DNA from: a virus | Taxonomy: Duplodnaviria; Heunggongvirae; Uroviricota; Caudoviricetes | Strand: one strand, 5' to 3' | DNA length: 43,597 nucleotides | IMG/VR virus record: IMGVR_UViG_2711768020_000006 | Shown: piece by piece, positions 1,817 through 38,219 of the stretch | How positions within the stretch are numbered: position 1 is the first letter of the stretch | Layout: every line of letters begins with the position of its first letter | Notes under the pieces: generated by a model | Told to the model about the DNA's origin: nothing | The model's database searches: none | What the model saw: the letters and a program-made list of their open reading frames with translations, nothing else | Made by a program: the position numbers and the translations under genes

Positions 1817-3904
1817 ATGTTTGCTTCAGTTAAAGAACTGGTTGGATTACCGGGGATGCCGGGAACGGAGCAAGGCGTTCGCTATTCAATCAGGAAGTAT
1901 GCAACCAGCGAAACCAGCAGACGCCGCAAGAAAGGCGCTAAAGGTTTTGAATACAGCATTGACTGTTTACCTGAAGTGACACAGCAGGCATTACGCGAAC
2001 GTTATGCCCTGCAACTGATGACGCAAAAAGCCGATGAATCACCGGCTCCGGTGGTGACAAAGGCCAGACGCTCGTCTGCCGTGGTTGATGCGGTGGAGGC
2101 ATATCGCGGATCACCACAACTGATGGTCGAACGCCTCAATGCCCTGACTGAAAACCAGCGCCAGGTGGCAGACGCACGCATTGCGATCGTCAGTGAGGTG
2201 CTGAAATTCACGCAACAACCCGGTTTCAGCTGCGCTAAAGCTATCCGGTTCCTCGTTAACAGCCTGGCACGATCACAACTGGACGAGCGCATTGTGGCAA
2301 TGGTTGAGACGGCGAACGCCAAAAAGGGAAACAGCCGCGCGTTGAGTGAAATCACGCTGAAACGCTGGATTGCGGCCTTTAACAAGGCACAGAACGCCGC
2401 TGAACGCCTGCTTTTACTGGCACCGGGTAAACGCCAGGAAATAAAAGCCGAAGATATTAACTGGCTGCCCGAATTTCTGGCGCAGTATCGCCAGTCAAAC
2501 GGCCGACCAATGACCGAGGCTTACGAGGATTTTGTTGCTGAATGGCAGCACCGGCACGCTGATGAGCCTTATATGCTCGATATCATGCCCTCTTATGACA
2601 CCATTCGCCGCGCAATGAAGAAACTGCCGGAAGTGGTGAAACAAAAAGGCCGGGTAACTGGCAGTGAATACCGTCAGCTTGAGGGATTCACGCGCCGCGA
2701 CTGGTCCAGAATGCCGGTGAATTATGTCTGGATTGGTGACGGTCACGGCATGAAGCTGAAATGCGCGCACCCGGTTCACGGGCGGCCATTCGCACCGGAA
2801 GTGACCTTTGTTATCGACGGTGGCACGCGCTTTGTGGTGGGCTGGAGCCTTGACCTGGCTGAAAATGTTTTCGCCGTAGCCGGTGCCATACAGCACGGTA
2901 TTCGCCATCATGGCAAACCGTTTCTGTATTACTCGGATAATGGCTCCGGGGAAACCGCCGACGTCCTGGATAAGGAGATTGTGGGGATACTGCCACGACT
3001 GGGGATTAATCACCCGACAGGGATTGCCGGTAATCCGCAGGGACGGGGCATTATCGAACGGCTTAACCGCACATTACCGATGCGCATAGCCCGTAAATAC
3101 CGCACCTATTTCGGGAAAGGAGCAGATCGCGAGACGTTACGTAAAACCAACCGCGATTTACGCTCGGCATTCAGTGCCCTGCAACAGGGCAAACGGCTGA
3201 ACGCCCGGCAGCAGTCAGCGATGCGTGATTTACCGTCCTGGTCTGAACTGATTGATGCCATTCGTGACGGTGTTGAGTGGTACAACAACCGGCCGCACGA
3301 TGAATTACCCATGAAGCCGAACGGTAAACATTACAGCCCGGCGGAGTTCAGAAAAAAACGCCTGGCGGAAGAGGACACGGAAATTGAATGGCTGTCCGAT
3401 GTTGAACTGCGGGATATGTTCCGGCCGATGGTGGAGCGCCCTGTAAGACGCTGTGAAATACGCTGGCTGAATAATATTTACTACGCGCCCGAGCTGCGTG
3501 ACGAGCATGGCCGTAAGGTACTTATCAGCTATGACATTCATGATGCCGAACGAATTACCGTGCGCCGCCCGGATGGCAGCGTGATTTGCGAGGCGGTATG
3601 GGACGGCAATAAACGCGAAGCCTTCCCTGTCAGCGCGGAATACTACAAACAGCAGCAGCGCCTTAAAGGCATGCGTAAACGCGCAGAGGAAAAAATCCGT
3701 GATGCCGAGGATGAGGTTGTCAACGTGCTGGAGCACAAGCCGCAGGAGCCCTGGCTGGAAAACATATACCGCCCTGTGGGTAATACGGTGACCGTTCAGC
3801 AACCGGTCGCTGACGATGAACCTGATGAAGAATACGAGCGTAATTTCCAGCGGGGATTGCAACTGCTCGAAGCGAAATTAAAAGAAAGTGATCCGCTGGC
3901 CTGA
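1817..3904 (+). CDS. A: Mu-type DDE transposase A
   Basis: 695 aa; N-terminal GLPGMPGTEQGVRY enhancer-binding-type motif; candidate DDE residues in VWIGDGHG, YYSDNGSGE and GIIERLN; position after ner. Confidence 0.9.
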   Translation: MFASVKELVGLPGMPGTEQGVRYSIRKYATSETSRRRKKGAKGFEYSIDCLPEVTQQALRERYALQLMTQKADESPAPVVTKARRSSAVVDAVEAYRGSPQLMVERLNALTENQRQVADARIAIVSEVLKFTQQPGFSCAKAIRFLVNSLARSQLDERIVAMVETANAKKGNSRALSEITLKRWIAAFNKAQNAAERLLLLAPGKRQEIKAEDINWLPEFLAQYRQSNGRPMTEAYEDFVAEWQHRHADEPYMLDIMPSYDTIRRAMKKLPEVVKQKGRVTGSEYRQLEGFTRRDWSRMPVNYVWIGDGHGMKLKCAHPVHGRPFAPEVTFVIDGGTRFVVGWSLDLAENVFAVAGAIQHGIRHHGKPFLYYSDNGSGETADVLDKEIVGILPRLGINHPTGIAGNPQGRGIIERLNRTLPMRIARKYRTYFGKGADRETLRKTNRDLRSAFSALQQGKRLNARQQSAMRDLPSWSELIDAIRDGVEWYNNRPHDELPMKPNGKHYSPAEFRKKRLAEEDTEIEWLSDVELRDMFRPMVERPVRRCEIRWLNNIYYAPELRDEHGRKVLISYDIHDAERITVRRPDGSVICEAVWDGNKREAFPVSAEYYKQQQRLKGMRKRAEEKIRDAEDEVVNVLEHKPQEPWLENIYRPVGNTVTVQQPVADDEPDEEYERNFQRGLQLLEAKLKESDPLA

Positions 3905-3977
3905 AATAAAAAAATAACCCGAGGGGTGACTCAGGTTATTTGAGGTTTCAGTCTCGGAGAATGCTGTCTCAAGCGAG

Positions 3978-4919
3978 GTGAATAATATGACCGATATTAA
4001 CGATGTAATCAAGACCATTGATGAACTTATTGATGGCGGCGTACTGACGCAGTATGCCATCGCCAGAGAGGCGGGAATTTCCGACGGCACATTATCGGCT
4101 TTCCGTAAGGGAAAATATAAAGGCGATAACGCTGCTGTGGCTGCTTCCCTGCGCTCCTGGTATGAGAACTGGAATAAACAAAGCGCACTGCCGGAACCGC
4201 CGCAGTTTGTGGAAACTCAGACAGTCCAGGAGCTGCGCGCACTGTTTCAGGCGGTTCGCCTGATGGGCTGTATTAACGTTATTGTGGGCGTACCGGGTGT
4301 GGGTAAAACGGCCACTGCCCGTAATTACTGCCAGGAGCAACCAAACACCTGGATGATCACCCTGTCACCCGCGCACTCCAGCGTCACGGAGTGTCTGCTG
4401 GAGCTGGCCGATGCGCTGGGGATTGATTACACCCGCGCGAACAAAGGGGCATTATCCCGCGCCATCCGCCGTCGCCTGATGGGAACGCGTGGACTGGTGA
4501 TTGTGGATGAGGCGGATCATCTTGGTATTGACGGTCTGGAGCAACTCCGGGCAATTCAGGACGCCACGGGGATCGGGATGGTGCTTATTGGTAACCCGCG
4601 CGGATTGTTTAAAGGTGGACGCCGCGCCTTTGATGATTTATCGCGCCTGTTCAGCCGTCTTGCCCGTACAAAACAACTTCGCAAGGCCAAAAAGGCGGAT
4701 GTGCTGGCCATTGCCATGGCGTGGGGGATCAGTGGTGAGGCCGAGCTGGCCGTCATGCAGGCTATCGCTGAAAAGCCGGGAGCGTTACGCGTTCTGACAC
4801 ATACGCTTAACCAGGCGTGGCTCACCGCCAGCGGTGAAGGCGCGGCGCTGACAGAAAAACATATTAATGCGGCCTTTAAAGAGGTTTATACCAACCCTGA
4901 ATTACTCTCACAGGTGTGA
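3978..4919 (+). CDS. B: Mu B-type transposition ATPase (AAA+ target DNA activator)
   Basis: 313 aa; Walker A GVPGVGKT and Walker B LVIVDEADHL; N-terminal HTH; follows A. Confidence 0.9.
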   Translation: MNNMTDINDVIKTIDELIDGGVLTQYAIAREAGISDGTLSAFRKGKYKGDNAAVAASLRSWYENWNKQSALPEPPQFVETQTVQELRALFQAVRLMGCINVIVGVPGVGKTATARNYCQEQPNTWMITLSPAHSSVTECLLELADALGIDYTRANKGALSRAIRRRLMGTRGLVIVDEADHLGIDGLEQLRAIQDATGIGMVLIGNPRGLFKGGRRAFDDLSRLFSRLARTKQLRKAKKADVLAIAMAWGISGEAELAVMQAIAEKPGALRVLTHTLNQAWLTASGEGAALTEKHINAAFKEVYTNPELLSQV

Positions 4920-4921
4920 TT

Positions 4922-5143
4922 ATGGCGGTATTTAATATTCCTGATATTTACGGACGCTTTTACCTGGTTAATTTCGATAACGTGAAGGTGATTTCACTGG
5001 CCGAAAATAAAGAATGTGGCGATTTACTTTTTGAATTTAATGACCGCACACGAATGGTGATATCTGCCGGACTTGATCGCGAAGGTGCGACAGAAGTTTA
5101 CAGCGGAATATGCCGTTCTGTTGGTGCGAAACAAGTCAGCTAA
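4922..5143 (+). CDS. Hypothetical early protein
   Basis: ORF with AGGTG Shine-Dalgarno; ATG chosen over the tracker's GTG at 4916. Confidence 0.4.
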   Translation: MAVFNIPDIYGRFYLVNFDNVKVISLAENKECGDLLFEFNDRTRMVISAGLDREGATEVYSGICRSVGAKQVS

Positions 5144-18834: not shown

Positions 18835-19968
18835 ATGAAGACAGAAAATCACCCAAAAGACGCAAATCGCCCCTCCGGTTTAGCCGTGCTTTCAGCTTCG
18901 CTGACTGCATCCGGCGACGGATGGTGTCAGTTACTGCCAGCCGGTCGGGTAAAGGCCCGTGACGGTCGCCCGGAAAAACCGACTGAAGGCTGGCTGATTA
19001 ACGAATCCGCCTGTAACCGGATGAAAGCCGGGCTTTCCGCCCTGCATCAGCCGTTACTGATTGATTATGACCATCACTCCGTGAATGCGCAGAAAAACGG
19101 ATTCAAGGCTATTGCTGCAGGATGGGTTAAGCCGGAAAACATCGAATGGCGTGAGGGTCAGGGGATTTTCATTAAACCTGAATGGACACCACAGGCACAA
19201 AAACATATTGATGACCGTGAATATGCCTATCTGTCTGCATATATGCATTATTTCGCTGACACCGGGGAACCCTACCTGTTGCGCATGGCTTCCCTGACGA
19301 ATGATCCGGGTATTACGGGTATGAACCCTGTCGCGGCACTCAGTGCTGATGATCTCTATGTCGTTTCCCCTTCTCAGGAGCAATCCCCCATGAATGAGCA
19401 ATTACGCCAGTTGCTGACGGCGCTCGGTCTGACCGTGGCTGACGGTGACGAATTTACACCGGAACTGGGCACGGCGGCGCTGTCTGCCCTTACCGGGATC
19501 AAAACCCGTGCGGATGCGCACGACACCCTGAAAACGCAGGTTGCCAGCCTGTCGGCAGAACTGGAAACCGCAAAAGGCACACCAACTGGCGGCACTATTG
19601 ATCTGACGAAATATGTGCCCGTTGAGACGTATAACGCCCTGCGTACCGAATATGCCGCGCTGTCGGCACAACACGGCAGCACCACGCTGGAGCAGTTGCT
19701 GGATAAGGCCGAGTCCGAAGGACGCATTTTCAAAAGCGAACGCGGATACATGGAAGGACTCGGACAACAGATTGGCGTCGCGGCACTTTCTGCACAGCTT
19801 GACGCCCGCCAGCCGGTTGCGGCTCTGACCACTCTTCAGACCGACACCGTAACCGTGCCGGATAAAAAGACCGCCACCGCTGTGCTGTCGGCTGAAGATA
19901 TCGCCGCCGCACGTCTGTTGGGTAAAACCGAAGCCGAGTTCCTGAAAATGAAAGAGGAAATGCAATAA
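18835..19968 (+). CDS. Head protease/scaffold protein (Mu I-like)
   Basis: 377 aa immediately upstream of the major head gene; Ala/Thr-rich helical C-terminal half; start uncertain. Confidence 0.65.
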   Translation: MKTENHPKDANRPSGLAVLSASLTASGDGWCQLLPAGRVKARDGRPEKPTEGWLINESACNRMKAGLSALHQPLLIDYDHHSVNAQKNGFKAIAAGWVKPENIEWREGQGIFIKPEWTPQAQKHIDDREYAYLSAYMHYFADTGEPYLLRMASLTNDPGITGMNPVAALSADDLYVVSPSQEQSPMNEQLRQLLTALGLTVADGDEFTPELGTAALSALTGIKTRADAHDTLKTQVASLSAELETAKGTPTGGTIDLTKYVPVETYNALRTEYAALSAQHGSTTLEQLLDKAESEGRIFKSERGYMEGLGQQIGVAALSAQLDARQPVAALTTLQTDTVTVPDKKTATAVLSAEDIAAARLLGKTEAEFLKMKEEMQ

Positions 19969-20915
19969 TGCCTACCCCGATTACACCGGCGATGATCACC
20001 GCCCTGATGACGGGCTACCGTTCTGATTTTCAGGCCGGGATGTCCATGGCTCCGTCGCAGTACCAGAAAATTGCGATGACCGTGCCGTCCACCTCGAAAT
20101 CCAACACCTACGGCTGGCTGGGGCAGTTCCCGCAGTTCCGTGAGTGGATCGGCTCCCGCGTCATCGAGAAGATGAAAGCCTATGGCTACGCCATCGTGAA
20201 CAAAACCTTTGAAGGCACCGTTGCCATTAGCCGCGATGACTTTGAAGACGACAATCTCGGCATCTACTCCCCGTTATTCCAGGAAATGGGTCGTGCCGCT
20301 GCGGCACAACCGGATGAACTGGTCTTTGCTGCACTGCGTGATGGTCTGAATGCGGCCTGCTATGACGGCCAGAACTTCTTTGATACCGAACACCCTGTTT
20401 ACCCCAAAGTGGATGGCTCCGGTGATGCACAGATGGTCAGCAATATGTTTGTGGCAAAAACCGGCTCTGTCGGTGCACAGGCGGATTACAGCGGCCCGGC
20501 CTGGTATCTGCTTGACTGCTCCCGCGCGGTAAAACCGCTGATTTATCAGGATCGCCGCAAAGCCGAACTGGTTGCCCAGACAAAAGTCGATGAAGGCCGT
20601 GCGTTTACTGATAACGAGTTTGTGTTCGGTGCTTCCGCCCGTCGCAATGTGGGCTACGGCTTCTGGCAGATGGCCTACATGATGCAGTCACCGCTGACGC
20701 TGGATGCGCTGTGGCACGGCTGGTCAGCCATGCGTGACTTTAAGGCTGACGGTGGCCGCAAACTCGGCATCAAACCCACCCATATTGTTGTCCCCACCTC
20801 GCTGGAAAAACAGGCGGTGCAGCTGCTGGAGCGCGAGCTGTTCGCAGACGGTAACGCCACAGTCTCTAACGAGATGAAGGGCAAGCTGGAGCTGGTTGTC
20901 GCGGATTATCTGTAA
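19968..20915 (+). CDS. Major head (capsid) protein (Mu T-like)
   Basis: 315 aa, position, and a stable hairpin just downstream (20926-20951). Confidence 0.75.
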   Translation: MPTPITPAMITALMTGYRSDFQAGMSMAPSQYQKIAMTVPSTSKSNTYGWLGQFPQFREWIGSRVIEKMKAYGYAIVNKTFEGTVAISRDDFEDDNLGIYSPLFQEMGRAAAAQPDELVFAALRDGLNAACYDGQNFFDTEHPVYPKVDGSGDAQMVSNMFVAKTGSVGAQADYSGPAWYLLDCSRAVKPLIYQDRRKAELVAQTKVDEGRAFTDNEFVFGASARRNVGYGFWQMAYMMQSPLTLDALWHGWSAMRDFKADGGRKLGIKPTHIVVPTSLEKQAVQLLERELFADGNATVSNEMKGKLELVVADYL

Positions 20916-31697: not shown

Positions 31698-32248
31698 CCC
31701 TGACCCCGCATCAGCGCGCCCTGTTGCAGTTACTGCCTGACGGGCTGGCATGGGACAAGCGTCCGTCATCCGTACTGGCATCATTATGTCTGGGCCTCAG
31801 TCATTCGACAGCGCGTGTATCCTGGACGGGTAAACAGCTGCTTGCCGAGCGTTTCCCTGACACGTCGCGCCTGCTGCTGGAAGACTGGGAGCGTTATCTC
31901 GGGCTTCCCGAGTGTGATATGGCCGGAGCCACCCTCACGGAGCGACAGCGTTATGCCGGAAATAAATACCGGATGAAGCCCTCGCTGAACCGTGAATTTT
32001 ATATCCGGTTTGCGGCGGAGTTTGGTTATCAGATTGACATTCAGCCCTCACCGGATTCGCAGTGGGTCAGTATTGTCACGATTAACAGTGAAACCGGCTA
32101 CCGGAATATGAATGTGCTGGATGATATTCTCACGCCGCTGCGTATTTATGAAGGCGGTGCGCTGGAATGTATTCTGAACCGTTATAAGCCTGCATGGCAG
32201 ACGTTTATTTACGTTTATGCAAACAGCCATGAAGAGGAGACTATTTAA
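31688..32248 (+). CDS. Tail protein (Mu gp48-like)
   Basis: Synteny immediately upstream of the tail fibre gene. Confidence 0.55.
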
Positions 32249-33129
32249 TGTTTCATGTTGATAATAATTCCGGCGTGGCGAATATGCCTGCGCTGGCACC
32301 GGCGCAGAGTAATACCACCACCTGGTTTACCGAAGGTGACGGACAAAAAGGTATCAGCTGGATTGGTCAGGACTGGCTGAATATTCTCCAGGCCGAACTG
32401 CTGAATATTCTGGCTGAAGCCAGTATTCAGCCGGATAAGGCGCAGTTAAACCAGCTTACGCTGTCCATTAAAGCCATTATCGCTGCGAATGCCTTTTCCC
32501 GGAAAAATAACCTGAAAGAAATTGCTGATGCCGGTGCGGAGGCCCAGCGTCTGGCCCGTGGTTATCTTGGTCTGGGGACGCTTGCCACAAAAAACAGTCT
32601 TGGTCCCGCTGACGTTAATGCCCTGGCGAAGGATCAGAATCTCGCCGACCTGGAGAATAAGGGAACCGCCCGTAATAATCTGGATGTTTACAGCAAAAGC
32701 GAAGGTGATAACCGTTACCTGCGCAGGGAGCAGAACGGCGCAGACATTCCGGATAAAGGGGCTTTTATCGATAACGTCGGTTTACGGGAAACGGTAAACA
32801 GGGCGGCGAATGCCCTGCCATCGGACGGCACCGCCGTTGCCGCGAACAGGCTGGCAAATGCCCACACAATTAATGGTGTTCCCTTTGACGGGACGCAGGA
32901 TATCACTATCTCATCAGGAACAGTAACCGCCATAAGACTGGGGTCGGTGACCGCACATATGCCCGGAACATGGGAAAGCTGGGATCTGAATCTGGGGGGC
33001 GGCAATGTTCTTACCGGAATTAAAGTACAGGATGTCGGTAAGAATACGGCAGATAACGTCGGCGGCGTGTATTACCGGCCGTTGCAGTATCTGTTAAATG
33101 GAGCATGGGTGACGGCTGCAAGTATATAA
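32248..33129 (+). CDS. Tail fibre protein (Mu S-like); C-terminal ~117 aa lie inside the invertible segment
   Basis: Position before the tail-fibre assembly gene and invertase; the crossover site lies within the ORF at 32765-32790. Confidence 0.7.
32765..32790. promoter_or_regulatory. Left recombination site (gix-like, 26 bp) of the invertible segment
   Basis: TTATCGATAACGTCGGTTTACGGGAA; its reverse complement shares the half-site TTCCCGTAAACC and central GA with the right site. Confidence 0.65.
32778..32905. repeat. Left inverted repeat of the invertible segment (~120 bp, imperfect) paired with 33965-34094
   Basis: Reverse complement of 33965-34094 aligns, with a short divergent internal stretch. 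Confidence 0.75.
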
Positions 33130-33137
33130 TGATATTC

Positions 33138-33162
33138 AGAAGGCCTTCCGGCCTTCTTTATT
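33138..33162. terminator. Bidirectional terminator-like hairpin (GAAGGCC-ttcc-GGCCTTC) between the convergent tail fibre and assembly genes
   Basis: Hairpin followed by a T-run on the plus strand. Confidence 0.5.
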
Positions 33163-33682
33163 ACTGTGGCTGCTCAGGCCATTTAATGGCGTTAAATTCA
33201 GCTTCTGTTTTAATGGCGGGTAGTTCCATTTTCTTCACCTGACTGATGTATGCCATCCATTGGGTAAGTGCTGCTCTGTCTTCATCGCTGATGGTGCCCA
33301 GTTGTAGCTCCGTTCTCCAGTCATTAATTTTTTCATATGCCTGATTAAGATATGACTGGCGCATTGCTTCCAGTTTTCTTGCGTAGTTAACCGGAATACG
33401 GGAGATTATGCCATTATCAAACTTCCAGTTTCCTGAAATATCCGTGCCTTCAGGGAGTTCATCGACCTCAACCACAGAAAACCCCGCAGGATACAGCGCC
33501 GAGGCGTCCTGTGATATTGAGCAGATAACGCCGCTGTCAGGTGTTATGCAAAGTTTATATTTTTTGGTGAATAATGGCAGGGATTCGTAGAAATCCTTAC
33601 CATCTTCACTCTGGAAATACTGAACATTATTACCATATGGCATATTTTCAGGATAATAACGGGTTATATTTTTTAGTTCCAT
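33161..33682 (-). CDS. Tail fibre assembly protein (Mu U/U'-type)
   Basis: 173 aa; C-terminal region GTISDEDRAALTQWMAYISQV typical of tail-fibre assembly chaperones. Confidence 0.75.
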   Translation of the reverse strand: MELKNITRYYPENMPYGNNVQYFQSEDGKDFYESLPLFTKKYKLCITPDSGVICSISQDASALYPAGFSVVEVDELPEGTDISGNWKFDNGIISRIPVNYARKLEAMRQSYLNQAYEKINDWRTELQLGTISDEDRAALTQWMAYISQVKKMELPAIKTEAEFNAIKWPEQPQ

Positions 33683-33733: not shown

Positions 33734-34094
33734 TTATAACTGAGATACCGTAATCCATGTACCTCCGACTAATTTTTGCAGGGGTCTGAATGCTATAAAA
33801 TCGTTTGAAGCATCAACTTTACTGTCAATCTGCAGGCCTGCCATAACATTACCGTACGCAGAGTAATATGCCCCACCGTACATTACCTGCCTGTTCTCTG
33901 CTCCCAGCCTGATATCCTGGATATATCGGGAATCCGCATCCTGCTGTGTTATACCAGAAGTGATGTTTATGTCCTGCGTCCCGTCAAAGGGAACCCCATT
34001 AATATTTCTTGGGGTGGCGAGTCTATTCGCGGCAACGGCGGTGCCGTCCGATGGCAGAGCATTCGCCGCCCTGTTTACCGTTTCCCGTAAACCG
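33734..34094 (-). CDS. Alternative tail-fibre C-terminal cassette (S'v-like), promoterless in this orientation
   Basis: Reverse-strand translation from the right inverted repeat continues the tail-fibre frame for ~119 codons to a TAA at 33734-33736 (complement). Confidence 0.6.
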
Positions 34095-34107
34095 AGGTTT
34101 TCAGGAA
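34082..34107. promoter_or_regulatory. Right recombination site (gix-like, 26 bp)
   Basis: TTCCCGTAAACCGAGGTTTTCAGGAA, close to the Mu gix sequence as I recall it. Confidence 0.65.
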
Positions 34108-34172
34108 AGCCAGGATTAACTCTGTTTTATTCCTCATGCGACAATTCCGGCTTTTTATAATAAGGAAATCGT

Positions 34173-34745
34173 ATGCTGATTGGGTATATCAGGGTGTCAA
34201 CAAATGACCAGAATACGGCGCTACAAAGAAATGCGCTGGAATGTGCAGGATGTGAGCTGTTTTTCGAAGACAGAATAAGCGGTAAGACAAGGGAGCGTCC
34301 CGGACTTAAACGCGCATTAAAGCGACTCCGGCCAGGGGATACCCTGCTGGTCTGGAAACTGGATCGCCTTGGACGCAGTATGCAGCACCTTGTCCTTTTA
34401 ACAGAAGAACTCCGGCAACGCGGCGTTAACTTCCGCAGCATTACGGACAATATTGATACATCCACTCCCATGGGACGTTTCTTTTTCCATATAATGGGCG
34501 CGCTGGCGGAAATGGAGCGGGAACTCATTATTGAACGTACACGCGCGGGTCTTGCTGCTGCCCGTGCTCAGGGGCGTCATGGCGGCAGACCTCAGAAACT
34601 GACAGAGAAAGAGCGGGAGCAAATCGCCCGTTTGCTGGCTAATGGCGAGTCCCGTAAACAAATCGCACTGATATTTGATATTGGCCTTTCCACCCTTTAT
34701 CGTTATTTTCCTGCCTCACCAGCTCCGTCACCAAAAGTACCGTGA
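34173..34745 (+). CDS. gin: Serine recombinase, Gin/Pin/Hin-family DNA invertase
   Basis: 190 aa; N-terminal MLIGYIRVSTNDQ with the catalytic Ser motif; C-terminal HTH; adjacent to the inverted-repeat-bounded segment. Confidence 0.9.
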   Translation: MLIGYIRVSTNDQNTALQRNALECAGCELFFEDRISGKTRERPGLKRALKRLRPGDTLLVWKLDRLGRSMQHLVLLTEELRQRGVNFRSITDNIDTSTPMGRFFFHIMGALAEMERELIIERTRAGLAAARAQGRHGGRPQKLTEKEREQIARLLANGESRKQIALIFDIGLSTLYRYFPASPAPSPKVP

Positions 34746-34830
34746 CGCTTTTTTGAATTTCCGCAAAACACATATTTTTCAGCGGTCGCTATTCTGACTC
34801 TGTTTAATTCAGAAACAGGCAGAAAAGACG

Positions 34831-36885
34831 ATGTCAGACTCCAAGTGGAAAATGCTCTCCGCCATGCCCGGAGAGTTTTCAGTCAAGGTTGCCGGTGGCA
34901 CGGTGGCATTTATTGAAAGCCCTTTCCGCCCTTCGGGTAATAAAGGGGGGATCACCTTCGCAGACTGCGTGATCCGCTTCAGCACGAAAGAGCCATTATG
35001 GGTAATGCCGGTATCCGGTAATCCCAGTGCAGAAATCACCAGTTCAGGCGTGACTGGCATCATTCCAATCACATCTGACGTGGCCGGAACGCTCACGCCC
35101 TCCGACTGGAATGCACCGGATAACGCCGGGCCTTCCGGTAGCACGAATGGCAGCAGTTCAGAGCCGGAATATTACTTTGTTGTCATTCTCGCGGGTCAGT
35201 CAAATGGCATGGCCTACGGCGAGGGGCTGCCGTTACCGGATTCGTTTGACCGCCCGGACCCACGCATTAAGCAACTGGCACGCCGCAGTACGGTAACGCC
35301 CAACGGTACGTCGTGTACATACAACGACATCATTCCGGCAGACCACTGCCTGCATGATGTTCAGGATATGAGCGGGATAAACCACCCGAAAGCTGATCTG
35401 GCAAAAGGCCAGTACGGGACTGTCGGTCAGGGGTTGCATATTGCCAAAAAACTGCTTCCCTATATCCCACAGAATGCCGGGATACTTCTGGTGCCCTGTT
35501 GTCGTGGCGGGTCAGCATTCACCACTGGAGCCGACGGCTCATTCAGTGAGGCCAGCGGTGCTTCCGCTGATTCTTCACGCTGGGGGGCCGGTAAACCTCT
35601 GTATCAGGACCTGGTAAGCCGCACCAAAGTCGCGCTGGCGAAAAACCCGAAAAACAAACTTCTGGCTGTGGTCTGGATGCAGGGAGAGGCAGACCTTGCC
35701 TCAGGAAGCCAGCAGCATAATAGTTTATTCACGGCCATGGTTCAGCAGTTCAGAACTGACCTGGCTCCGCTTGCTGCGCAGTGCGTGAGTGGAAATGCCA
35801 CCACGGTGCCGTGGATTTGCGGTGATACCACGTATTACTGGAAAAACGCTGGCACCGATAAATATGAGGCAGTATACGGTGGCTACAAAGGCAAGGAAGC
35901 ACAGAAAATTTTCTTTGTACCGTTCCTGACGGATGAGAATGGACAGAGCACGCCAACGAATGCTCCGGCGGAAGACCCGGATATTGTGGCTGTCGGGTAT
36001 TACGGTGCAGCATCCCGAACCCAGGGCAGTTTTGTTTCGACACAGCGTGACAGCCATTTCAGCTCATGGGCACGCAGGGGCGTCATTTCAGACCGTCTGG
36101 CCTCAGCTATTATGCTCCATGCAGGGCGCACGGCTGAACTGATGCGTGGGCAGACCGTGACACCACCGGATGAGAAGCCGTCACCTGATACACCATCAAA
36201 ACCGTCCACGCCACCCGCAGACACCACGACGATGAGTACGCTATTTGCTTACCGGGCATCTGAGTCTGAAGGACGGTTGACACCACAGGGTTGGGCTGCC
36301 GGAGGTGGCAAGGCTCAAATCGTGGATGATGCCGGAGCCAGCGGGGGTAAGGCAATGAAACTGACCAAGGAAACAGGAAGAGCCCCCTGGTACCTTGAGC
36401 ATGATGCTGGTAATGGTGCGGACCTGCTGGGTAAAGGTGGTCTTGTCAGTTGTCGTTTTAAACTCGATGGCGCGCTTACGGCTAATCAGTACGCACTGGC
36501 GCTGTACTGGCCGGTTTCTGCCCTGCCGCAAGGGGTTACTCTGGAAGGAAATGCCGGTCATAACCTGCTGGCATCGTTCTACGTACAGAGCGATGCCACA
36601 GACCTTAACGTGATGTATCACAAAGGAAACACGGCGCAGAACACGAAGCTGGGGTCATTCGGCGCATTTAATAACGAATGGCATACGCTGGGCTTCCGTT
36701 TTGCCGGTAACAACAGTATTGAGGTGACGCCGGTCATTGATGGTAAGGACGGGACACCATTCATGCTGTCGCAGTCTCCGGTCGGCACGTTTACGGCAGA
36801 CAAGTTGCGCGTGACCGATATCACTAAAAATGCGACTTACCCGGTACTGATTGACAGTATCGTGGTGGAAGTGAATAACGCGTAA
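34831..36885 (+). CDS. Cargo protein: SASA/SGNH-type carbohydrate esterase domain plus a C-terminal beta-sandwich (lectin/LamG-like) domain
   Basis: 684 aa; GQSNG motif (ILAGQSNGMAYG) and VVWMQGEADL motif; Pro/Ser/Thr-rich linker; no obvious signal peptide. Confidence 0.55.
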   Translation: MSDSKWKMLSAMPGEFSVKVAGGTVAFIESPFRPSGNKGGITFADCVIRFSTKEPLWVMPVSGNPSAEITSSGVTGIIPITSDVAGTLTPSDWNAPDNAGPSGSTNGSSSEPEYYFVVILAGQSNGMAYGEGLPLPDSFDRPDPRIKQLARRSTVTPNGTSCTYNDIIPADHCLHDVQDMSGINHPKADLAKGQYGTVGQGLHIAKKLLPYIPQNAGILLVPCCRGGSAFTTGADGSFSEASGASADSSRWGAGKPLYQDLVSRTKVALAKNPKNKLLAVVWMQGEADLASGSQQHNSLFTAMVQQFRTDLAPLAAQCVSGNATTVPWICGDTTYYWKNAGTDKYEAVYGGYKGKEAQKIFFVPFLTDENGQSTPTNAPAEDPDIVAVGYYGAASRTQGSFVSTQRDSHFSSWARRGVISDRLASAIMLHAGRTAELMRGQTVTPPDEKPSPDTPSKPSTPPADTTTMSTLFAYRASESEGRLTPQGWAAGGGKAQIVDDAGASGGKAMKLTKETGRAPWYLEHDAGNGADLLGKGGLVSCRFKLDGALTANQYALALYWPVSALPQGVTLEGNAGHNLLASFYVQSDATDLNVMYHKGNTAQNTKLGSFGAFNNEWHTLGFRFAGNNSIEVTPVIDGKDGTPFMLSQSPVGTFTADKLRVTDITKNATYPVLIDSIVVEVNNA

Positions 36886-37029
36886 GCAGGATAAAAAAAT
36901 GCCGCCGGTAAGGGAAAACAAGAAACCGGCGGCAAAAAGATCGTTATATCCAAAGCAAAAAATGCAGTGCACCTTTTTACCTAACAGATATTACCGGTGT
37001 CAACACCATGTCAATAATTGGGAGGGATA

Positions 37030-37212
37030 ATGACATTTTTACAGCTTATTTTATTGTATTTCTGCACGGCAGTATGTGCGTTATATCTGGTGAGTGGTGG
37101 TTATAAGGCCATCAGAAATTATGTTCGCCGCAAAATTGAGGACGCAGCAGCTGAAAAACTCAGTAAAACAGCGCAGGTAACTCCGCTCCCAAAAGACCCG
37201 ACCCAGCCCTGA
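37030..37212 (+). CDS. Small membrane protein (one N-terminal transmembrane helix, basic tail)
   Basis: 60 aa; GGAGG Shine-Dalgarno; tracker start at 37018 (TTG) trimmed. Confidence 0.4.
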   Translation: MTFLQLILLYFCTAVCALYLVSGGYKAIRNYVRRKIEDAAAEKLSKTAQVTPLPKDPTQP

Positions 37213-37247
37213 TTGCAGGGCTTTATTCCCGCATAAGGAGGATATAC

Positions 37248-37502
37248 ATGCCAGAAATTAAAGGCACCGTCACTGAAGACCTGGTAAAACAGGCACTGTA
37301 TTCCGGTGAAGTAAATAAGTTGCTGAAAGCGCAGGTCCGCAAGGATTTTGAGGCACAAATCGACACTTACGTTGATGAAGTGCTGGCAAAACTTATTGGG
37401 CCAGCAGTTGCGGCCAGTGATGCTGATAATGAGCCGAAAACCGACGCGCAGCCAGAGCAACCAGACCCGGCTCAGCCCGGAACTGACAGTACCATGATGT
37501 AA
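37248..37502 (+). CDS. Small helical protein with an acidic Pro-rich C-terminal tail
   Basis: 84 aa with a strong AAGGAGG Shine-Dalgarno; preceded by a hairpin plus T-run (37205-37229). Confidence 0.45.
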   Translation: MPEIKGTVTEDLVKQALYSGEVNKLLKAQVRKDFEAQIDTYVDEVLAKLIGPAVAASDADNEPKTDAQPEQPDPAQPGTDSTMM

Positions 37503-37669
37503 CAATACAAACCGGTGGTGTCCTCTGCCGGTTTGACACTAATGAAAACATCTTTGCCGCTATCCAGCCATATGTAATCGCTGGATAGTATTTCGTATTC
37601 AGAAATATAGCTGCTTATGGAGCAGTCAATCCTGCTTCCCCATCCGGGCAGGCAAATGAACCGGTATCA

Positions 37670-37963
37670 TTAGTCCGATTCACGCTTTTGTAGAATCGTT
37701 CCCAGAATGCTATACAGCTCATTAGCCTGTTGCTCCATCATTGAGACGGAGGCTATACGGTGCAAAGTGATTTCAGGAGGTGGCACACCTCCATCTTCTT
37801 GCTGTGGAGGAAAAACATAAGATTTAATAAAAAAGTTGAAGCATATGAACTCTCCCGCACTCGAACTGTATTTGCAGGCATCTGAATAATCGGAAAAATA
37901 ATCATTATAGATTTCCGCATTTTCAATCATTTTTCGATTTCTCGTCGTTACATGATTGTCCAT
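37670..37963 (-). CDS. Hypothetical protein, AT-rich, divergent from com-mom
   Basis: 97-aa ORF with AGAGG Shine-Dalgarno; visibly lower GC than the surrounding phage DNA. Confidence 0.45.
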   Translation of the reverse strand: MDNHVTTRNRKMIENAEIYNDYFSDYSDACKYSSSAGEFICFNFFIKSYVFPPQQEDGGVPPPEITLHRIASVSMMEQQANELYSILGTILQKRESD

Positions 37964-38148
37964 AGCAGCCTCTTACGCTGGCAATTAACCAATTGACTTC
38001 TATAAATTAGTTGATTTGTTTGCTTTGCGGTATTCAAATGTACAATCATTCAGCACTTATGCGTTACAGCACCGTTTAAAATTAGTGATCAAACTCATAA
38101 ATTTTCGCTAATGACATTTCGTGTTATTTGTTGTATCAATTAAATAAA

Positions 38149-38175
38149 TCAAATCGATCGTTTTTGTCGATCGAT
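38149..38175. promoter_or_regulatory. GATC-containing inverted repeat (AATCGATCG-n7-CGATCGATT) upstream of com-mom; candidate methylation-sensitive regulatory site
   Basis: Palindrome and two GATC sites seen directly. Confidence 0.4.
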
Positions 38176-38219
38176 TGAGTGATAAAGATATCAACAACAA
38201 AGCAGGAGGTTATGCGGCC

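Follow-up and report, generated by a model that had tools for sequence, protein, structure and literature searches.

The esterase gene and the domains of its product

We investigated the gene at 34831..36885 (plus strand) of the IMG/VR virus record IMGVR_UViG_2711768020_000006, a 43,597-nucleotide caudoviricete sequence that is referred to below, over its whole length, as the window. The gene is an ATG-initiated open reading frame (ORF) of 684 amino acids, and is located between gin, which encodes the G-segment invertase (34173..34745, plus strand; Pfam Resolvase and HTH_7), and the com-mom operon (38220..39111, plus strand; Pfam Zn_ribbon_Com and Mom), at the right end of a Mu-like prophage. 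Judged by the sequence of its esterase domain, catalytic residues and C-terminal domain, by its prophage origin and by the two genes that follow it, the product is a member of the NanS-p family, and the gene a Mu-type allele of this nanS-p-type group of sialate O-acetylesterases. A preliminary description of this DNA had reported the ORF at this position, and the corresponding interval in Mu as empty, and both points hold. In phage Mu (NC_000929), the end of gin, at 35673, leaves 94 bp before com begins at 35768, and the gin-mom PCR amplicon of SfMu is 1.5 kb, leaving no room for the esterase cassette. Thus, the interval is empty in classical Mu phages.

The central part of the protein is an SGNH type II (SASA) esterase domain (35164..36120, plus strand). 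Residues 110-428 match the structure of Escherichia coli NanS/YjhS (3PT5) over 319 residues (phmmer, E 1.8e-117), the Pfam SASA family is matched above its gathering score (E 1.5e-13), and residues 71-684 fall within phrog_143 of the PHROGs collection (E 1.7e-296). The preliminary description had recognised a SASA/SGNH-type core from a GQSN-type motif and from VVWMQGEADL; both are present (ILAGQSNGMAYG, residues 119-130, and residues 280-289, respectively), in a domain that is homologous to NanS. In the alignment to 3PT5, GQS124N and SH409FS correspond to Ser19 and His301 of NanS, identifying Ser124 (codon 35200-35202, plus strand) and His409 (codon 36055-36057, plus strand) as the predicted catalytic residues. 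Catalysis by NanS proceeds via Ser19 and His301, with no catalytic aspartate (PMC9063846). The motifs SHFS and MQGE are each found in 108/108 full-length relatives, and GQSN in 107/108. An inactive esterase had also been considered in the preliminary description; the conservation of the catalytic serine and histidine points instead to an active one.

Searches of phage sequences with tblastn identified 349 records, mostly Stx-converting lambdoid phages, with approximately 65% identity over residues ~94-683. These include L0105 of phage 933W, which has been identified in the literature as nanS-p. In a large protein collection, the window protein belongs to a near-identical cluster with 599 member sequences, and a 99%-identical neighbour is named by NCBI as 'sialate O-acetylesterase [Shigella sonnei]', while the RefSeq name of the protein, in E. 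coli DLI.5a, is 'DUF6645 domain-containing protein'. The enzyme family and its likely role are thus already known, and public databases already name the protein correctly. The only unusual points are the Mu-like prophage setting and the different N-terminal domain.

The esterase domain is followed by a Pro/Thr/Ser-rich linker (linker 2, residues 431-468; 36121..36234, plus strand), with 8 Pro, 8 Thr and 3 Ser in 38 residues, and by a C-terminal lectin-like jelly-roll domain, a putative carbohydrate-binding module (36235..36882, plus strand). Residues 469-683 match 6YP6, the C-terminal domain of a phage NanS-p (phmmer, E 7.1e-98), and Pfam DUF6645 is found at residues 533-650 (E 7e-68), inside this domain (469-684). 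The lectin-like fold of the NanS-p C-terminal domain, and its proposed role, are taken from the literature (PMC8065619). In the phage phi24B homologue gp84, self-cleavage occurs in the linkers, and the equivalent of linker 2 is an autoproteolysis site (preprint 10.64898/2026.04.10.717836). We found no signal peptide, the highest 15-residue Kyte-Doolittle mean within the first 60 residues being only 1.08. The Pro/Ser/Thr linker, the beta-sandwich-like C-terminal domain and the missing signal peptide, each of which had been described previously, are accordingly confirmed, the second by the 6YP6 match and the third by the lack of a hydrophobic N-terminal segment. The preliminary description had concluded that none of its three readings of the protein could be decided from sequence. 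This proved too cautious, as the matches to 3PT5, 6YP6, Pfam and the PHROGs establish the identity of the protein.

The N-terminal domain of Mu-like esterases

Published NanS-p proteins consist of three parts, an N-terminal DUF1737, a SASA esterase and a C-terminal domain. In the window protein, the place of DUF1737 is taken by residues 1-80 (34831..35070, plus strand), a small domain that has no Pfam match and that is predicted to be all-beta and cupin-like. An AlphaFold2 (AF2) model based on a five-sequence alignment is all-beta over residues 7-78, at a predicted local distance difference test (pLDDT) score of 76-86, with strands predicted at residues 7-10, 14-29, 41-52, 56-71 and 74-78. Searches with this fold returned weak cupin or jelly-roll matches only. 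The domain is joined to the esterase by a Ser/Gly/Thr-rich linker (linker 1, residues 81-111; 35071..35163, plus strand) that is predicted to be disordered (pLDDT < 50 at residues 81-107). We considered whether the N-terminal domain might be a remote homologue of DUF1737, and rejected this: hhalign against the DUF1737 alignment gave a probability of 0.2%, and the predicted all-beta fold differs from that of DUF1737, a helix plus three strands (preprint 10.64898/2026.04.10.717836).

The domain has a very restricted distribution. An exhaustive HMMER search of 1.84 billion representative proteins returned no relatives other than fragments of this gene and, with 30% identity, one protein of Salmonella enterica. 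Indexed searches yielded no further types, a scan of species-representative genomes gave no matches, and no paralogue of the domain was found within the window. Three sequence types are therefore known, all of them on esterases in Mu-like prophages: that of the window; a second E. coli type with 62% identity, carried by the Mu-like insertion of the Stx-phage record LC727881; and the Salmonella type. The Salmonella domain forms the N-terminus of a GQSN esterase that follows the invertase of a Mu-like prophage, with Mu Gp45, GP46, Baseplate_J and Gp48 among the prophage neighbours. Among the viral contigs of IMG/VR, 34/34 carriers of the domain are Mu-like, with the same gene order. In the converse search, a genome scan with the esterase domain for other N-terminal modules, the matches were confined to alleles with DUF1737 (Escherichia sp., E. 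albertii) and to NanS-like genes of a single domain (Proteus, and one metagenome-assembled genome of Bacillota).

The cassette and its exchange with lambdoid prophages

We identified two small genes that accompany the esterase. The first (37030..37212, plus strand) encodes a DUF1378 protein (Pfam, E 1.2e-31) with a hydrophobic N-terminal stretch resembling a membrane helix, and the second (37248..37502, plus strand) an acidic DUF826 protein (Pfam, E 6e-16; phrog_311, E 5e-28). An identical DUF1378 gene is annotated by RefSeq in E. coli DLI.5a, and DUF1378 is found in 309 phage records, of the same kinds as those with the esterase, approximately 150 bp downstream of nanS-p. DUF826 is present in every Mu-type locus whose contig reaches that far, and the two genes together stand behind nanS-p in all Mu-type loci that are long enough. 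DUF1378 and DUF826 thus remain with nanS-p away from lysis genes, which suggests that they serve the esterase rather than lysis, and their shared travel in this cassette offers a modest clue to two domains that are widespread and of unknown function.

A third ORF, of 97 amino acids (87 in RefSeq), lies on the minus strand between DUF826 and com (37670..37963). It has a low GC content (36-42%), occurs in some related loci only, and gave no Pfam, PHROG, NCBIfam or PADLOC match. In LC727881-type phages the same slot is filled by other small ORFs, including a 64-residue cysteine-rich one. This ORF therefore occupies a variable slot outside the conserved cassette, and of the three small downstream genes that the preliminary description had grouped with the esterase, DUF1378 and DUF826 do belong with it and the third does not.

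The composition of this region bears on the proposal, also made in the preliminary description, that the esterase and the three small genes form an uncharacterised defence or counter-defence module. Its location is in keeping with such a role, the cassette being inserted in a variable slot at the prophage end, beside com/mom (an anti-restriction DNA modification system) and together with a variable low-GC ORF. However, PADLOC found no system match for the esterase, for DUF1378 or for the minus-strand ORF, and for DUF826 only a sub-threshold partial match to PbeC (E 0.008, 12.9 bits), and we rejected a defence system on this result. In addition, conservation does not extend to the third small gene, a metabolic or glycan function is well supported for the esterase, and DUF1378 and DUF826 also accompany nanS-p in lambdoid prophages (DUF1378 in the 309 phage records above), where they stand beside lysis genes. 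We consider a defence role highly improbable.

The relationship to lambdoid prophages extends to the DNA itself. A tract at 35164-37158 is shared, at 91.7% nucleotide identity (blastn), with a lambdoid prophage of E. coli 2017.17.03CC, in which the order is antiterminator, tRNAs, esterase, DUF1378, DUF826 and holin. At its 5' end the tract begins with codon 112, directly after linker 1 and precisely where the N-terminal region gives way to the esterase, and its 3' end falls within DUF1378. We regard this tract as evidence of a recent module exchange with lambdoid prophages. Similarly, in 22 full-length alleles with the Mu-type N-terminal domain, that domain is 97-100% identical, the esterase 81-100% and the C-terminal domain 81-100%, and in 86 DUF1737-bearing alleles the esterase is 79-93% and the C-terminal domain 81-96% identical to the window protein. 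The overlap between these ranges indicates that the esterase and C-terminal modules are exchanged between phage types, with the N-terminal module staying with the Mu-like backbone.

A hairpin, GCCGCCGGT-N15-ACCGGCGGC, is found at 36900-36932, directly after the esterase stop codon and inside the tract shared with lambdoid prophages. Its T-run is on the minus-strand side, and it would therefore terminate transcription of the minus strand and not of the plus strand.

All 34 IMG/VR loci have the order tail fibre and assembly gene, (gin), esterase, DUF1378, DUF826, variable slot, com and mom. In some of these loci (L010, L011, L013, L015, L018 and L023-L025) there is no gin between the fibre-assembly gene and the esterase, the fibre genes being followed directly by the esterase. 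The preliminary description had allowed that close homologues in this position might be annotated as ordinary tail fibre proteins in many Mu-like phages; the position is indeed shared by many Mu-like prophages, and the annotation is sialate O-acetylesterase. Nor is the cassette rare. Among 5,426 complete E. coli genomes, 22 contain the exact cassette (at least 99% identical) and 225, many of them Shiga toxin-producing E. coli, contain most of the structural region of this Mu-like lineage. E. coli HH35 and 600029 are examples of lysogens in which the copy is intact.

In the most reduced case, that of E. coli DLI.5a (NZ_CP103972, 14331-24412), a Mu-like prophage in ypdB has decayed to a remnant of approximately 10 kb. 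The head genes and most of the tail genes are lost, only truncated forms of the transposase and tail sheath survive and gin carries a frameshift, and the esterase, DUF1378, DUF826, com and mom are all intact, which we count in favour of a role for the enzyme in the lysogen. We additionally identified, in Escherichia phage vB_EcoM-569R5 (Peduoviridae), a DUF1737-SASA esterase directly after the lysis genes (locus 3770-5020). NanS-p-type esterases are therefore distributed across at least three phage architectures, lambdoid, P2-like and Mu-like. We found no description of nanS-p in a Mu-like phage in our search of the literature.

The element that carries the cassette here is a complete Mu-like prophage, in which 1817..3904 encodes the Mu transposase and 19968..20915 the major head protein gpT. 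Over matched prophage sequence, the first 25 kb of the window are approximately 92% identical to the 'Mu-like phage' insertions in the Stx-phage records LC727881 and LC727895. The gin gene has 70% DNA identity to that of Mu, and the com-mom DNA is identical to that of E. coli DLI.5a (NZ_CP103972), where it is annotated by RefSeq. Upstream of gin, inverted repeats of 86 nt (32770-32855 and 34017-34102; 93% complementary) flank a G-like invertible segment of approximately 1.16 kb, which contains two alternative tail-fibre tips and a single tail-fibre-assembly gene (33161..33682, minus strand). With the segment as it stands here, the S gene that is expressed (32248..33129) lacks an assembly gene running in its own direction, and the same layout is seen in the Mu-like phage of LC727881. 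In that phage (locus 9420-10472), mom is replaced downstream of com by a 350-residue C-5 cytosine DNA methyltransferase (Pfam DNA_methylase, E 2e-42), as though one DNA-modification payload had been exchanged for another behind an unchanged com leader.

The Mu-like prophage is followed immediately, past its right end, by a fragment of an IS66 transposase (39330..39788), the remnant of a lambdoid-type tail-fibre N-terminus (39842..40870), a DUF4376 gene similar to those for tail-fibre assembly (40821..41444), and ipaH (41624..43339, minus strand; LRR and NEL E3 ligase). This region (39330-43339) is an ipaH island of prophage origin. The presence of ipaH beyond mom indicates that the host is Shigella or enteroinvasive E. 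coli (EIEC).

Function, deployment and relation to known systems

Characterised NanS-p proteins cleave 5-N-acetyl-9-O-acetylneuraminic acid (Neu5,9Ac2), allow lysogens to grow on it, and de-O-acetylate mucin glycans (PMC8065619; PMC8319020). By analogy with these homologues, from which we infer the substrate, biological role and exit route of the window protein, the Ser124/His409 pair would hydrolyse O-acetyl esters at C9, and also at C7 or C8, of sialic acids such as Neu5,9Ac2, and attachment to sialylated or mucin glycans would most likely be provided by the lectin-like jelly-roll domain at the C-terminus. De-O-acetylation would open the sialic acids of host mucins to sialidases and to the Nan catabolic pathway of E. 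coli and Shigella, and the enzyme may thereby be a gut-fitness factor for the lysogen population. As the protein has no signal peptide, it would have to leave the cell by phage lysis and/or on the particle, that is, through prophage-induced lysis, carriage on the virion, or both. The cassette (nanS-p, DUF1378 and DUF826), found also in lambdoid prophages, is here situated between gin and com/mom, and DUF1737, the capsid anchor in phi24B, is replaced by an unrelated all-beta domain of approximately 80 residues found only in Mu-like prophages.

Taken together, the sequence homology, the conservation of the catalytic residues, the arrangement of domains, the cassette, the gene order and the exchange of modules that we observed are best explained by a NanS-p-type sialate O-acetylesterase with a role in gut fitness, to which we assign a probability of roughly 0.85. 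Several points weigh against this explanation. The characterised alleles are only approximately 65% identical to the window protein (933W), so that its substrate specificity could differ, and the C-terminal domain is highly variable among alleles, down to 40% identity in some Mu-type loci. DUF1737, the defining N-terminus of the published NanS-p proteins, is absent by both Pfam and hhalign. The full-length AF2 model is poor (mean pLDDT 49), probably because its 26-sequence alignment is shallow and nearly identical, and was not used, leaving the active-site geometry to be drawn from the sequence alignment alone. Finally, no convincing promoter was found: a promoter and terminator scan of 34000-39300 returned no more sites than shuffled sequence, with fewer promoter-like matches than in the shuffled sequence, and is uninformative as to gin-linked versus late expression.

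The gut-fitness role must also be weighed against modification of a phage receptor, in which the enzyme would deacetylate an O-antigen or capsule (for example, O-acetylated polysialic acid) for adsorption or for superinfection exclusion. This has been raised as an open possibility for NanS-p in a review (PMC8065619), and the gene adjoins the tail-fibre/gin module. SGNH domains do occur in phage tail proteins, as seen in a weak match to phrog_25867 'tail protein' (E 1e-6) and in an Arthrobacter phage minor tail protein with 29% identity. Nevertheless, the substrates of the closest characterised relatives, NanS and NanS-p, are O-acetyl sialic acids, both free and bound to mucin, Pfam revealed no domain of the tail-fibre, adaptor or beta-helix type, and the same esterase and C-terminal modules are found in lambdoid, P2-like and Mu-like phages, which have quite different tails and receptors. 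Furthermore, an enzyme with no signal peptide cannot alter lipopolysaccharide (LPS) or capsule from inside a living lysogen. We therefore regard receptor modification as unlikely. Of the readings offered in the preliminary description, that of lysogenic conversion comes closest to what has been found for the homologues (PMC8065619).

A different question concerns where a sialate O-acetylesterase of this kind would be deployed. Among the structural proteins of phi24B, the NanS-p homologue gp84 is abundant and decorates the capsid, its N-terminal DUF1737 forming hexamers that are seated in the capsid hexons (preprint 10.64898/2026.04.10.717836). By analogy, the window protein's N-terminal domain might anchor the esterase on the capsid or tail of Mu-type particles. 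In that case it would be chiefly the phage, rather than the metabolism of the lysogen, that profited, by adhering to or penetrating mucus or by clearing glycans from its path to the cell; this is compatible with the gut-fitness enzyme favoured above, and differs from it in deployment and beneficiary. We rate such display as a possibility worth serious consideration, though short of probable.

Aside from the phi24B precedent for DUF1737 as the capsid anchor of a NanS-p homologue, several observations are consistent with display. A different domain stands at the position of DUF1737, ahead of a disordered linker, in a protein with no signal peptide, and is restricted to Mu-like esterases (the 34/34 viral contigs, and the LC727881, DLI.5a and Salmonella loci). 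The contrast between this highly conserved domain (97-100%) and rear modules that vary more (81-100%) and overlap with lambdoid alleles is the pattern that would be expected of a particle-specific adaptor.

Against this, the domain matches no capsid-binding, decoration or tail-attachment protein in fold or sequence, it has no paralogue elsewhere in the window, and cement proteins are not required by the Mu capsid (PMC11915804). P2-like myophages, too, have DUF1737 alleles, so that the type of N-terminal domain does not correspond one-to-one with the type of particle. Moreover, the two E. coli types of the domain differ by 38%, against only approximately 8% (DNA) for the matched head and tail genes, and an intact esterase has been kept in the DLI.5a remnant, which is unable to make particles.

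The virion-associated enzyme envisaged in the preliminary description, as an O-antigen or capsule deacetylase on an accessory tail spike, is thus upheld in part. Carriage on the virion is plausible from the phi24B capsid homologue, but DUF1737 is absent, the documented substrate is host sialic acid and not O-antigen, and there is no sign of a tail spike. That the N-terminal domain anchors the protein to virions, as a hitherto unrecognised module that is peculiar to Mu-type particles and replaces DUF1737, is a suggestion that we advance only tentatively and would not ourselves expect to hold. If it were true, the surface of Mu-like phages of E. coli, Shigella and Salmonella would bear a sialate esterase that is active and directed at mucin, and a single enzymatic payload would be shared, on interchangeable anchors, by phages that differ in architecture. 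The module swap exactly at the domain boundary, together with the report of a lambdoid capsid anchor, offers a simple test of display on Mu-type virions.

NanS-p is regarded as an accessory of Stx (lambdoid) phages for fitness and virulence, and the same esterase, carbohydrate-binding module and two small genes are in circulation, too, in a common lineage of transposable Mu-like prophages from E. coli and Shigella, to which Salmonella adds a distant relative. The overall view of this enzyme family is left unaltered by these findings.

Comparison with known systems places the window protein as follows. With NanS (YjhS, 3PT5) it shares the SGNH type II family, the GQSN, QGE and SHFS motifs, and the catalytic serine and histidine; however, NanS is a single-domain protein encoded in the nanCMS operon, whereas the window protein is phage-borne and adds an N-terminal domain, two linkers and a carbohydrate-binding-type C-terminal domain. 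Tail fibres and tail spikes offer no parallel by Pfam, as none of their domains (baseplate adaptor, beta-helix, fibre repeats) was found, and the sole connection to tail proteins is through the weak SGNH-domain matches given above. [quoted passage not shown]

The esterase of the P2-like phage vB_EcoM-569R5 is likewise NanS-type and myophage-borne, with approximately 76% DNA identity over part of the esterase domain; unlike the window protein, it keeps DUF1737, and its gene sits after the lysis genes. The closest likeness is to the NanS-p proteins of Stx and other lambdoid phages (933W L0105/z1466; phi24B vb_24B_21/gp84; 6YP6), which have the same esterase and lectin-like C-terminal domain, the same inter-domain linkers, no signal peptide, and DUF1378 and DUF826 downstream. 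Identity to the 933W protein is approximately 65%, and to other lambdoid alleles reaches 93% in the esterase and 96% in the C-terminal domain. The window protein departs from them in two respects: DUF1737, which binds the capsid in phi24B, is replaced by an unrelated all-beta domain of approximately 80 residues, and the position of the gene, in a transposable Mu-like myophage, is that between gin and com/mom rather than the late region between Q/stx and the lysis/holin genes.

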